A stretch of DNA of 4,399 nucleotides from a virus (taxonomy: Duplodnaviria > Heunggongvirae > Uroviricota > Caudoviricetes): the IMG/VR virus record IMGVR_UViG_2778261570_000013, one strand, 5' to 3'. Positions 145-4,398 of the stretch are shown in pieces (the first letter of the stretch is position 1; every line of letters begins with the position of its first letter). The position numbers and the translations under genes were made by a program. The notes below the pieces were generated by a model. It was not told the DNA's origin. It did no database searches and worked only from the letters and a program-made list of their open reading frames with translations.

Positions 145-672
145 ATGACCACTATTACCAGAGAAAGCGCGGAGATTAAATCATTTATCACTGGTTTCCT
201 GAGCGATCCGGCGCACGATAACCAATCTTCAAACAGCCTGCTTACTAATGTGTTTCGTATCGCACTGGCATCGCTGGAAGCAGTATCGGATGAACGGGCA
301 GCCTATGAATTATTTATGGAGAAGCGTTTCGGGGGATCTGTAGATCGCCGCAGGGCAAAAAATGGCGATGGCGAATACATGGCATGGGATATGGCGATTG
401 GCTGGATTATCTGGTGTCACCGCGCCGCCATGCCTCAGGCCGGAAACTTTCGGGAAAATAAGAATTCGTCAACCAGCTCCCCGGCAACTCCGGATGATTG
501 GATAAGCTGTAGTGAGCGAACATCAGGCAAACAGGTTATCGAATTGACAATGCTGGTTAAACAATTGGTCAGTCAACTGAAAAAAGCAAAACCTGATTGC
601 AAATTACCAGATAGGGCGATGGATTATCTTTTGCGGAACGTACTGATAAGTGTGGAGGGTGTTTTACGATGA
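145..672 (+). CDS. Hypothetical prophage protein, 175 aa (MTTITRESAEIK...), function unknown
   Basis: Long ORF in the provided track (67..672, opened by TTG). The first ATG in frame is at 145, preceded by AGGAG at 134-138 (6-nt spacing). The stop TGA at 670-672 overlaps the ATG of the next small ORF. I do not recognise the family. Confidence 0.6.
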   Translation: MTTITRESAEIKSFITGFLSDPAHDNQSSNSLLTNVFRIALASLEAVSDERAAYELFMEKRFGGSVDRRRAKNGDGEYMAWDMAIGWIIWCHRAAMPQAGNFRENKNSSTSSPATPDDWISCSERTSGKQVIELTMLVKQLVSQLKKAKPDCKLPDRAMDYLLRNVLISVEGVLR

Positions 673-752
673 CCTGGCCTGAGGCATTCACAACGGTAGG
701 AATTGCAATGGCGGTGGCGATGGTGGTGTATTCAATTTGCCGCTGGGGATAA
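669..752 (+). CDS. Putative 27-aa hydrophobic micro-protein (MTWPEAFTTVGIAMAVAMVVYSICRWG)
   Basis: ATG 669-671 overlaps the upstream stop (ATGA at 669-672), a classic translational-coupling arrangement. The product is dominated by one hydrophobic stretch long enough to be a transmembrane helix. It is short and could be chance. Confidence 0.3.
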   Translation: MTWPEAFTTVGIAMAVAMVVYSICRWG

Positions 753-791: not shown

Positions 792-841
792 GCGGGTGCT
801 TGAGGCTATCTGCCTCGGGCATGAACACCAACGGCAGATAG
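792..841 (+). other. hok mRNA 5' leader elements: tac-like 5' segment (792-805) and a 9-bp perfect inverted-repeat hairpin (806-814 / 833-841, 18-nt loop)
   Basis: CTATCTGCC at 806-814 is the exact reverse complement of GGCAGATAG at 833-841. Segment 792-805 is complementary to 1168-1182. From memory, the motif GCUUGAGGCU.UCUGCCUC resembles the 5' end of plasmid R1 hok mRNA; this was not aligned. Confidence 0.5.
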
Positions 842-962
842 AGAAAAGCCCCAGTTAACATTACGCGTCCTGCAAGACGCTTAACATTAATCTGAGGCTC
901 AATCCATGCTGAACACATGTAGGTTAGCCTCTTACGTGCCGAAAGGCAAGGAGAAGCAGGCT

Positions 963-1118
963 ATGAAGCAGCAAAAGGCGATGTTAATCGCCCTGATCGT
1001 CATCTGTTTAACCGTCATAGTGACGGCACTGGTAACGAGGAAAGACCTCTGCGAGGTACGAATCCGAACCGGCCAGACGGAGGTCGCTGTCTTCACAGCT
1101 TACGAACCTGAGGAGTAA
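963..1118 (+). CDS. hokD: Hok/Gef family type I toxin, 51 aa (small membrane-depolarising toxin)
   Basis: Translation MKQQKAMLIALIVICLTVIVTALVTRKDLCEVRIRTGQTEVAVFTAYEPEE has the Hok hallmarks: N-terminal transmembrane helix, then TRK.LCE.R.R.G..EVA.F.AYE. It matches my recollection of E. coli HokD/RelF. AAGGAG at 948-953 lies 9 nt before ATG 963. The track ORF 906..1118 is an in-frame upstream extension. Confidence 0.88.
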   Translation: MKQQKAMLIALIVICLTVIVTALVTRKDLCEVRIRTGQTEVAVFTAYEPEE

Positions 1119-1125
1119 GAGACCC

Positions 1126-1147
1126 GGCGAGGGAGAAATCCCTCGCC
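1126..1147 (+). other. Stable hairpin just after the hok stop (9-bp stem GGCGAGGGA/TCCCTCGCC, GAAA loop); probable mRNA 3' structural element, not a terminator
   Basis: Perfect 9-bp inverted repeat with a GNRA-type tetraloop and no following U-tract. Confidence 0.4.
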
Positions 1148-1167
1148 ACCTCTGATGTGTCAGGCAT

Positions 1168-1182
1168 CCTCAATGCACCCGC
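1168..1182 (+). other. fbi-like 3' element complementary to the hok mRNA 5' end
   Basis: CCTCAATGCACCCGC at 1168-1182 pairs antiparallel with GCGGGTGCTTGAGG at 792-805: 14 base pairs with one bulged T at 1174. Confidence 0.5.
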
Positions 1183-1186
1183 ACTT

Positions 1187-1210
1187 AACCCGCTTCGGCG
1201 GGTTTATTTT
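1187..1210 (+). terminator. Rho-independent terminator of the hok transcript
   Basis: Stem AACCCGC (1187-1193), TTCG loop, GCGGGTT (1198-1204), then T-rich TATTTT. Confidence 0.7.
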
Positions 1211-2909: not shown

Positions 2910-3269
2910 ATGCGTATAGAGTTTGTTTTGCCTTATCCGCCAACGGTGAACACCTACTGGCGACGTCGTGGCAGCACATATTTTGTATCAAAAACCGGTG
3001 AGCGTTATCGCCGTGATGTGGCGCTTATTGTTCGCCAGCAGCGGCTGAAATTAAACCTGTCCGGAAGGCTGGCGATAAAGATCATTGCAGAGCCGCCGGA
3101 TAAGCGCCGTCGTGACCTGGACAATATTCTGAAAGCACCGCTGGATGCACTGACGCATGCGGGGCTGCTCATAGACGACGAGCAGTTTGATGAAATTAAT
3201 ATTGTGCGCGGTCAGCTCGTTCCTGGTGGTCGGTTGGGGATAAAAATCACAGAACTGGAGTGCGCATGA
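2910..3269 (+). CDS. rusA: RusA-type Holliday junction resolvase, 119 aa
   Basis: Translation contains PDKRRRDLDN and KAPLDALTHAGLLIDD, matching the RusA catalytic-core motifs (compare DLP12 RusA PDRRRRDLDN / DALTKAGFWLDD, from memory). GAGG at 2900-2903 lies 6 nt before ATG 2910. Confidence 0.9.
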   Translation: MRIEFVLPYPPTVNTYWRRRGSTYFVSKTGERYRRDVALIVRQQRLKLNLSGRLAIKIIAEPPDKRRRDLDNILKAPLDALTHAGLLIDDEQFDEINIVRGQLVPGGRLGIKITELECA

Positions 3270-3955
3270 ATAACCAGTATTTACAGTTTGTGCGTGAACA
3301 GCTCATTATCGCCACCGCCGATTTGAGTGGAGCAACAAAAGGTCAGCTTGAAGCCTGGCAGGAGAATGCCATGTTTGATACCGGGCGTTACAGGCGTAAA
3401 AAAATCCGGTACCGCGATGAAGTGACCGGAAAAATGATCACGCTGGATAATCCACCAATCCCGGGGAAACAATCGCTGGCGAAGGGGACGTCAATTCCTC
3501 TGGTCAGTCCGGTTGAGTTTTCGACATCATCGTGGCGGCGGGCTGTTCTGTCTCTTGAAGAACATCATAAAGCCTGGTTGTTGTGGTGTTACAGCGGGAG
3601 TATTTGTTGGGAATATCAGATCGCGATAACACAGTGGGCGTGGAATGAATTTAATACTCAATCCGGTACCAGAAAAATTGCAGGGAAAACGCAGGAACGC
3701 CTGAAAAAATTAATCTGGCTGGCGGCGCAGGCAGTAAAAGCAGAACTTTTTGGTGGGGAAGGTTATGAATACCAGGAGCTGGCATTACTGGCGGGAGTGA
3801 CAACTAAAAACTGGTCCAAAACATTTACTCGTCACTGGGTTGCAATGAAACACATTTTTCAACGACTGGATAGTGAGGCTTTATTGTTTGTAATGAGAAC
3901 ACGTTCAAAACAAAAGACAGCATTTTCAAAGCAAAGTGTTGCAAAAGTAGATTGA
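3266..3955 (+). CDS. Putative late-gene antiterminator, Q-like (QuuQ-type), 229 aa from ATG 3266
   Basis: It sits directly after rusA (the rusA stop 3267-3269 overlaps the start) and directly before a promoter/terminator pair and a tRNA cluster, which is the canonical lambdoid Q position. GGAG at 3257-3260 lies 5 nt before ATG 3266; the track's 3260 start is a GTG. The family call is by context and weak recollection, not a motif match. Confidence 0.6.
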   Translation: MNNQYLQFVREQLIIATADLSGATKGQLEAWQENAMFDTGRYRRKKIRYRDEVTGKMITLDNPPIPGKQSLAKGTSIPLVSPVEFSTSSWRRAVLSLEEHHKAWLLWCYSGSICWEYQIAITQWAWNEFNTQSGTRKIAGKTQERLKKLIWLAAQAVKAELFGGEGYEYQELALLAGVTTKNWSKTFTRHWVAMKHIFQRLDSEALLFVMRTRSKQKTAFSKQSVAKVD

Positions 3956-4166: not shown

Positions 4167-4242
4167 GGCCCTTTAGCTCAGTGGTGAGAGCGAGCGACTC
4201 ATAATCGCCAGGTCGCTGGTTCAAATCCAGCAAGGGCCACCA
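4167..4242 (+). tRNA. tRNA with anticodon CAU, Ile2 (lysidine) type, ileX/ileZ-like
   Basis: Hand-folded cloverleaf: acceptor GGCCCTT/AAGGGCC, D-stem GCTC/GAGC, anticodon loop CTCATAA, T-loop TTCAAAT, encoded CCA. It is near-identical to my recollection of E. coli ileX. Confidence 0.85.
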
Positions 4243-4243
4243 A

Positions 4244-4320
4244 CCGCCACTAGCTCATCAGGAAAGAGCGTCAACCCTTTAAGTTGAGTGTGCGAGGTTC
4301 GAGTCCCCGGTGGCGGTCCA
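4244..4320 (+). tRNA. Atypical tRNA-like gene, formal anticodon UUU (Lys-type) with C at position 33 and one T-stem mismatch; identity uncertain, possibly a pseudo-tRNA
   Basis: Acceptor CCGCCAC/GTGGCGG pairs 7/7, D-stem GCTC/GAGC, anticodon stem TCAAC/GTTGA 5/5 with loop CCTTTAA, T-loop TTCGAGT, T-stem CGAGG/CCCCG 4/5, encoded CCA. Only 1 nt separates it from the previous tRNA. Confidence 0.5.
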
Positions 4321-4322
4321 GT

Positions 4323-4398
<76 letters not shown>

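Follow-up and report, generated by a model that had tools for sequence, protein, structure and literature searches.

The stretch analysed here, 4,399 nucleotides (nt) of the IMG/VR virus record IMGVR_UViG_2778261570_000013 (Caudoviricetes; called the window below), represents a nin-like region of a lambdoid prophage in which an open reading frame (ORF) for a protein of 175 amino acids (aa), ORF175, is followed by one of 27 codons, the micro-ORF, and then by a hok/mok/sok locus. The comparisons reported here indicate that the micro-ORF is a real, conserved, widespread and essentially unannotated gene for a membrane peptide. We assign a probability of about 0.7 to the reading in which ORF175 is a mosaic accessory gene and the micro-ORF a genuine and independent coding module. 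No evidence was obtained that the two ORFs form a new toxin–antitoxin or defence cassette.

ORF175 occupies positions 145-672 of the forward strand (ATG at 145, TGA at 670-672) and the micro-ORF positions 669-752 of the same strand (ATG at 669, TAA at 750-752); the stop codon of the first and the start codon of the second overlap as ATGA at 669-672. The product of the micro-ORF, MTWPEAFTTVGIAMAVAMVVYSICRWG, has a grand average of hydropathy (GRAVY) of 1.02, and its best 19-residue Kyte–Doolittle window, with a value of 2.0, covers residues 6-24, which is consistent with one transmembrane helix. This helix, about 18 residues long, is flanked by an acidic N-terminal tail (E5) and a basic C-terminal one (R25) and exposes a face of small residues formed by G11, A13, A15 and A17. 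Sequence searches gave no match for the micro-ORF in Pfam, NCBIfam, PADLOC or PDB; its matches in PHROGs were weak (E 0.019 or worse), fell into different families depending on the variant and are not counted as membership. Since the window holds 74 ORFs of at least 20 aa, an ORF of 27 codons that overlaps its neighbour in ATGA is nothing unusual by itself, and it is comparative evidence alone that raises the micro-ORF above chance. A sequence-only reading of the window had given both ORFs and their overlap at these positions, had described the shorter product as a single-helix membrane peptide, had recognised no motif in the longer one and had placed hok downstream of the pair; our results, including the single hydrophobic span at residues 6-24 and the searches described below, agree with it on each of these points.

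The comparative material consists of 128 copies gathered by a DNA-pattern scan of IMG/VR and of phage loci, in which the pattern fixed the first seven codons; in addition, tblastn produced full-length matches in 94 phage records at 55-96% aa identity. The length is exactly 27 codons in 122 of the 128 copies, the six odd ones being a contig-end truncation, a premature stop, a frameshift and a two-codon in-frame deletion (one each) and two read-throughs. For 53 unique nucleotide versions, the ratio of nonsynonymous to synonymous polymorphism (pN/pS) amounts to 0.31 over all codons and to 0.40 over codons 8-27, compared with 0.72-0.75 and 1.5-2.05 in the two shifted frames, although the sequences are closely related and non-independent and their first seven codons were fixed by the pattern, which makes these ratios indicative and not a formal test. 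A similar picture emerges from a comparison of the window with the virulent Vequintavirinae phage Av-05, whose micro-ORF differs at 16 nucleotides, 10 of them synonymous, and encodes 22 of the 27 residues identically.

The conserved positions of the peptide also have a recognisable arrangement. Y21, S22 and W26 are invariant though they lie outside the search pattern, and G11, A15 and A17 are nearly so; the invariant residues stand at both membrane interfaces and include a juxtamembrane tail, Y21-S22-x-C-R-W26-G, while substitutions within the helix are conservative (V/I/L/M/A/F swaps). Even the divergent members found behind DUF551 genes (MSWPDAIVTLGVVFAAAFVVFSICRWG and MNWSDVIVTLGMVFAVAFVVYSICRWG) keep the length, W3, the acidic position 5, G11 and the C-terminal SICRWG. 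In-frame purifying selection, conserved length and conserved start context are thus all found here, as in a protein-coding small ORF, and on these sequence grounds we conclude that the micro-ORF is a genuine protein-coding gene. The check that the sequence-only reading had itself proposed, whether the micro-ORF is disrupted or out of frame in related prophages, gave the same answer: its frame, its length and the ATGA coupling are all preserved there.

The start of the micro-ORF is conserved together with its frame. In the window its Shine–Dalgarno sequence, GGAGG at 653-657 of the forward strand, lies inside the last codons of ORF175, and GGAGG or AGGAGG is found at -18 to -5 in 109 of the 128 copies, whatever the upstream gene, being encoded each time by the last codons of that gene. 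All 101 copies with distinct contexts start on ATGA; among the 128, the junction is plain ATGA in 100 and ATGATGA or TGATG in the other 28. The second residue of the peptide is T, N or S, and its codon always begins with A (serine being encoded by AGY), by which the upstream TGA stop is preserved. A consensus scan, which provides a weak negative, flagged no promoter-like site upstream of the micro-ORF within positions 1-1300 on either strand. Because of the ATGA coupling and the strong Shine–Dalgarno sequence, we infer that the peptide is translated by termination–reinitiation on early-operon transcripts during infection or induction, which appears to be the natural reading of this junction. 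Elsewhere in the window, the stop codon of rusA and the start codon of the antiterminator gene Q also overlap as ATGA (3266-3269), in the same coupling style, which shows that the motif is common in this operon.

The micro-ORF behaves as a unit separate from the genes on its two sides. Local BLAST comparisons revealed that homology to the window is confined to 668/669-748/753 in Av-05, BP-4795 and VT1-Sakai, where the DNA to either side is unrelated, whereas in 933W and 606R7 it comprises the micro-ORF together with hok; the homology starts at the ATG of the micro-ORF and often ends at its stop codon. The upstream genes form 42 clusters, in which at least five unrelated C-termini occur (DUF551, the helical tail of ORF175, a zinc-ribbon/coiled-coil type like 933W L0139, an Av-05 type and a "...GIGVEVK" type), and one of these genes is a fusion of dATP/dGTP pyrophosphohydrolase with DUF551. 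Conversely, an intact micro-ORF comes after only about 30 of 77 DUF551 genes (about 40%). Gaps of 80-85 nt that the annotations leave in the compact genomes of BP-4795, Av-05 and a P1-like Salmonella phage-plasmid (IncY) are filled by it exactly. Given the number of upstream clusters and the unrelated C-termini among them, the micro-ORF is not the cognate partner of ORF175; it is a mobile mosaic module of its own, always attached to the 3' end of a gene of the accessory group.

To judge by complete genomes, this module is common. Of 5426 complete E. coli genomes, 1609 (about 30%) carry the 84-bp micro-ORF, at 3064 places in total, with up to 7 per genome and 163 on plasmids. In PLSDB, 181 plasmids carry it (155 from Escherichia, 25 from Salmonella and 1 from Klebsiella); 174 of the 181 are typed as non-mobilizable, most of those listed are about 90-110 kb long, and the one examined is IncY. 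The carriers of the micro-ORF include lambdoid and Shiga toxin (Stx) phages, P1-like phage-plasmids of type IncY and the virulent Av-05. When species-representative genomes were scanned with a strict degenerate pattern, it turned up only in E. coli, Shigella flexneri and one contig of a Xanthomonas assembly, and since this pattern misses the divergent "MSWPDAI..." variants, the true range is somewhat wider. The contig in question, the 431-bp NZ_JPLE01000323.1 of Xanthomonas pisi, encodes the 933W-type micro-ORF exactly and is probably a contamination of the assembly by E. coli or Stx-phage DNA. A record named "Actinobacillus phage vB_Apl-pPE4" (PP818812.1, 12978-13646) contains a block with 93% identity to the helical tail, micro-ORF and hok of E. 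coli; its host label looks doubtful, or else the transfer was very recent.

Despite this frequency, the gene is nearly absent from annotation. It is unannotated in all nine carrier records inspected (933W, Stx2 converting phage I, ArgO145, BP-4795, Av-05, VT1-Sakai, POCJ13, strain E9 and the IncY plasmid). The commonest variant is present in GenBank on 79 contigs as a 27-aa "hypothetical protein" or "bacteriophage protein", so some pipelines have called it. In the literature, including full text and small-ORF supplements, we found no mention of the micro-ORF. Two NCBI entries, of 31 and 30 aa, go under the name "DUF551 domain-containing protein, partial" but represent the micro-ORF frame read from a contig edge (GGESMTWPEAF... 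and GEMMNWPEAF...), which is a systematic misannotation. The copy in Shigella phage POCJ13 (1501-1584 of the locus extract) is a divergent pseudogene with TAG at codon 3, and an antisense ORF of 42 aa is annotated over it.

The gene upstream of the micro-ORF in the window, ORF175, has a quite different character. Its ATG at 145 lies one base past the stop codon (141-143) of a short gene on the forward strand that ends at 143, and its Shine–Dalgarno sequence, AAGGAG, is found at 133-138 of the same strand. Profile and sequence searches gave no match for ORF175 in Pfam, NCBIfam, PADLOC or PDB, and membership of DUF551 (PF04448) or of Ead_Ea22 (PF13935/IPR025153) was not supported, since no Pfam match to either appeared (E<=0.1 for the former). 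The protein matches phrog_660 over its full length (E=1.4e-39, residues 1-175 against profile positions 3-193 of 193). Its 2636 database homologues, many of which combine the N-terminus with DUF551, are nearly identical block by block, and the alignment resolves ORF175 into three such blocks on the forward strand.

The first block (145-281, aa 1-46) consists of an exchangeable N-terminal leader ending in the hinge IALASLEA. Exactly these positions are 95.6% identical at the DNA level to the "Ea22 protein" gene of phage vB_EcoM-606R7, and the overlap of ORF175 with the protein so labelled by the depositors is limited to these first 46 residues. The octapeptide itself (residues 39-46; 259-283 of the window) is invariant although its flanks differ completely between homologues, and it has the look of a recombination joint within the genes of this group. 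The second block (282-498) combines a conserved helical core, ERAAYELFMEKRFG..RRRAKNG..EYMAWDMAxGWIIWCHRAAM, with a low-complexity, disordered Ser/Thr/Pro linker; the core is nearly invariant in 21 aligned homologues, most of which run on into DUF551. At 499-519 (aa 119-125) there follows WISCSER, the first seven residues of DUF551, after which the homologues read on as "WISCSERMP...THWMPLPEPP" while ORF175 switches to another tail. Judging from the alignment, this remnant marks a recombination point, and a DNA block at 474/481-520 is common to the window, 933W, BP-4795 and VT1-Sakai in local BLAST. The third block (520-669) is a helical tail module of 50 aa (...ELTMLVKQLVSQLKKAKPDCKLPDRAMDYLLRNVLISVEGVLR), which matches the C-terminus of phrog_924 (E=2.2e-14) and is present on many otherwise different proteins; the DNA of this tail and the micro-ORF (541-753) is shared by the window and ArgO145 according to local BLAST. 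An AlphaFold2 model built from the 21-sequence alignment contains helices only, is of low confidence (mean predicted local distance difference test score, pLDDT, 47.8) and falls below 50 throughout residues 91-127, the linker region.

At least 80% of positions 1-1300 is held by just 8 complete E. coli genomes, from which it follows that ORF175 is a rare recombinant of common parts. The sequence evidence places it as a mosaic accessory gene of the Ea22/Eaa/DUF551-type group among the early genes of lambdoid phages. With the accessory proteins of this group, known from the exo-xis and nin regions (PMC10834534, PMC8614690), ORF175 shares sequence blocks, a mosaic build with portable C-termini and the early-operon location; it differs in having no Pfam match to Ead_Ea22 or DUF551, with only WISCSER remaining of the latter. 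Portable C-terminal domains have been described in the mosaic Ea22 variants of Stx phages (PMC10834534), and neither of the two descriptions (PMC10834534, PMC8614690) mentions a coupled membrane micro-ORF. The view of the sequence-only reading that the pair might be plain prophage filler is therefore apt for ORF175 as a mosaic accessory gene and fails for the micro-ORF, which is a conserved gene.

On its other side, the micro-ORF is followed by the hok/mok/sok locus (approximately 794-1204, forward strand). Rfam model RF01794 detects the hok leader with the Sok target at 794-968 (113.5 bits), the mok (906-1118) and hok (963-1118) frames match Pfam HOK_GEF (E=3e-23), and a terminator scan found the hok terminator at 1187-1204, all on the forward strand. 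By analogy with hok of plasmid R1, a putative promoter for this locus is located at 759-787 of that strand (TTGCGG at 760-765, a 16-nt spacer and TAAAAT at 782-787), although it was not flagged by the consensus scan. In 933W, the corresponding genes are annotated as mokW, hokW and sokW. Like the micro-ORF, the hok loci (hok of R1, hokW of 933W and hokD of Qin) encode small membrane peptides; they are immediate neighbours, and the two occur together in 933W, in 606R7 and in 33 IMG/VR copies. The product of the micro-ORF has no sequence similarity to Hok and no antisense RNA was found for the gene; the micro-ORF ends (752) 42 nt before the start of the Rfam hok-leader/sok model (794) and so lies outside the hok transcript. 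For 115 copies the sequence extends 600 nt or more downstream; hok follows the micro-ORF in 49 of them (about 43%), at the spacing of the window in 33 and further away in 16, while in the other 66 (about 57%) there is no hok within 900 nt. BP-4795, ArgO145 and Av-05 lack it. Being outside the hok mRNA and Sok region and having no obligate co-occurrence with hok, the micro-ORF is not a component of hok/sok.

In other copies, what follows the micro-ORF is DUF4222-xis-int (BP-4795), a convergent type II toxin–antitoxin pair (ArgO145, 2209-2720 of the locus extract) or terminator-like hairpins. This variety makes the slot after the micro-ORF look like a landing place for self-contained insertions, of which hok is one, and the slot may represent an insertion hotspot for such modules. 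We also observed that this slot or its equivalent repeatedly holds toxin–antitoxin modules, namely hok/sok, the convergent type II pair and the relBE of Qin in E. coli K-12.

If the micro-peptide is a functional product, one can suggest how it works, although what follows is a tentative scheme. It would be made with the early operon only, on infection or induction, as the lack of a promoter-like site nearby implies. The positive-inside rule and insertion of the Pf3-coat type are established knowledge, and with E5 in its N-tail and R25 in its C-tail the peptide may insert into the inner membrane in this way, N-out/C-in. Rather than forming a pore, it would then bind a second membrane protein by means of its G11/A13/A15/A17 face and its YS-x-CRWG tail. 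This partner, from the host or the phage, would be modulated in early lytic development; candidates include a component of injection or uptake, in which case the effect would amount to superinfection exclusion, and a protease of the membrane, FtsH for example. Since the micro-ORF is found in the virulent Av-05, a role in lytic infection seems more plausible than one in prophage maintenance. We consider such a membrane-protein modulator the leading candidate for the function of the peptide, with a chance slightly short of even.

Known systems provide analogies for parts of this scheme. Small single-pass regulators such as MgtS, AcrZ, MgtR and SpoVM have 20-50 residues and one helix and bind a larger membrane protein, and CIII of phage lambda is a small early-operon inhibitor of FtsH, which is amphipathic and peripheral and does not span the membrane. 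The micro-peptide resembles these proteins in size, in having one helix and in the absence of enzymatic potential, and it has no sequence similarity to them, so the likeness may be functional at best. With the Pf3 coat protein it shares only the charge pattern (acidic N-tail, helix, basic C-tail), which predicts the N-out/C-in orientation and an insertion depending on YidC or proton-motive force; the Pf3 coat is a virion protein, which the micro-peptide is not.

Several points weigh against the reading we prefer, in addition to the relatedness of the sequences behind the pN/pS ratios. Decayed copies of the micro-ORF exist (TAG at codon 3 in POCJ13, the frameshift, the premature stop and the two read-throughs). 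The micro-peptide is absent from the text and supplements of three E. coli small-ORF studies (PMC5597208, PMC11188072, PMC4765031), which is weak evidence because uninduced cells or intergenic-only pipelines were used. The fold of ORF175 is unreadable at a pLDDT of 47.8, and topology, partner and function of the peptide are purely inferential.

A more specific version of the modulator idea, which we regard as rather unlikely, presents the micro-peptide as an unrecognised effector that lambdoid/Stx prophages, P1-like phage-plasmids and rV5-like virulent phages have in common. Early in infection it would dock onto a specific inner-membrane protein, a DNA-entry component or FtsH/HflKC, and alter superinfection exclusion, the lysis–lysogeny decision or Stx-prophage induction. 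If this were true, some deletion phenotypes of "ea22" or of the exo-xis region would be partly due to the unannotated micro-ORF.

Among the other explanations, the one that survives best presents the peptide as a membrane-damaging toxin or a holin-like effector of the early lytic stage, in the style of type I toxins or host shutoff. DinQ and TisB, small hydrophobic type I toxins, have 27 and 29 aa. The size and hydropathy of the micro-peptide (27 aa, GRAVY 1.02, best window 2.0) place it among small hydrophobic peptides of this kind; expression solely from repressed early operons, there being no promoter of its own, would make toxicity tolerable in lysogens, and the gene does occur in the lytic phage Av-05. 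However, a strong Shine–Dalgarno sequence with coupling is combined with no dedicated antitoxin or antisense RNA found, a weak negative in view of the consensus-based scans; the helix of about 18 residues has a face suited for small-residue packing and not an amphipathic, charged, pore-lining one, and genomes carry up to 7 copies. A toxin or holin thus appears unlikely. About as much weight, and little in either case, may be given to some role of the peptide other than that of a modulator, a toxin or holin-like agent or a linker.

The last of these, which we consider less probable still, is that the 84-bp block is kept mainly as a patch of DNA for recombination at a module boundary, where the frame and the coupling would only pass ribosomes on or prevent polarity, and the peptide would have no function. 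This would fit the homology blocks that begin and end at ORF borders with unrelated DNA on both sides, the position of the block at the junction of highly mosaic regions, and the fact that in many cases no further ORF separates the micro-ORF from a terminator-like hairpin or from an insertion that is transcribed independently. A recombination patch would need neither a strict length of 27 codons nor a conserved Shine–Dalgarno sequence, though, and it does not explain why the synonymous excess is restricted to the ORF frame, why invariant residues stand at both membrane interfaces or why the helix substitutions are conservative.

The weakest explanation is the one suggested in the sequence-only reading, that ORF175 and the micro-peptide form a two-component cassette (toxin–antitoxin, exclusion or abortive infection), in which ORF175, as the cytoplasmic component, would control a toxic membrane peptide, or both products would act with hok. 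Its appeal lies in the conserved stop-on-start coupling to the upstream gene, in a hydrophobic product as small as type I toxins and in a downstream site that often holds toxin–antitoxin genes (hok here and in 933W, the type II pair in ArgO145, relBE-hokD in Qin). That reading had also placed relB-relE ahead of hokD in Qin, correctly so, as the order there is relB-relE-hokD-rem-ydfU-ydfT. Nevertheless, we judge the cassette improbable: the micro-ORF changes partners freely (42 upstream clusters, at least five unrelated C-termini, one enzyme fusion) and ORF175 is rare; only about 40% of DUF551 genes carry the micro-ORF, and hok is absent in 57% of copies; neither ORF matches PADLOC, Pfam or NCBIfam; Rfam, the consensus scan and folding detected no antisense RNA, own promoter or RNA structure; genomes contain up to 7 copies, and the presence in the virulent Av-05 leaves no sense in prophage addiction. 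Two further candidates were rejected: a structured RNA at 655-765, where the fold of either strand is no better than shuffled sequence (z +1.8 and +0.9) and Rfam gives no match, and a programmed frameshift fusing ORF175 to the peptide, for which no X_XXY_YYZ slippery heptamer is present at the junction types examined.

Hardly any annotation includes the membrane-peptide gene, although about 30% of complete E. coli genomes carry it and many of those have more than one copy; the records that lack it include those of the reference Stx phages 933W, VT1-Sakai and VT2-Sakai and of phage BP-4795. The gene overlaps the stop codon of Ea22/DUF551-type genes that are studied for the lysis–lysogeny decision and Stx-prophage induction, and because of this overlap deletions or insertions in those genes may remove or uncouple the micro-ORF and confound the interpretation. 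It also represents a clean example of a gene-sized mosaic module and, for the small-protein field, a widespread membrane peptide.

The Qin region of K-12 deserves a separate comparison. Its relB-relE-hokD occupies the same syntenic slot, between replication/accessory genes and hok-rem-DUF968-Q, while the sequences of relBE and of the pair in the window are unrelated. The homology of K-12 to the window begins only at 949, and hokD of Qin matches only 949-1205; Qin is therefore devoid of the hok leader, the Sok region and the micro-ORF, the insertion having removed the leader and any micro-ORF.

In the remaining part of the window, between the hok terminator and a 90-aa ORF of phrog_1212 (1577-1849) there is an AT-rich stretch of about 370 bp (1205-1576), with sigma-70-like sites at 1305-1332 and 1498-1525 and a weak terminator-like hairpin at 1426-1443; the ORFs within it had no family match in the searches made. 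A DUF968/HNH gene (1851-2897), rusA (2910-3269) and Q (3266-3955) follow. Downstream of Q, ARAGORN detected three tandem tRNA genes at 4167-4398 (Met-CAT, Lys-TTT and Thr-TGT), the middle one scoring just 44 bits in Rfam. Over its left 1.3 kb the window shares 99.9% identity with a prophage of E. coli strain E9; there the strand that carries these genes has cro, O and P-like replication genes ahead of them, and the Prokaryotic Genome Annotation Pipeline (PGAP) calls ORF175 identically, with the same gene boundaries. The E9 prophage, otherwise near-identical, has a different Q gene and tRNA-Thr/Gly instead of the trio of the window, and the window is thus a different mosaic in its right half.

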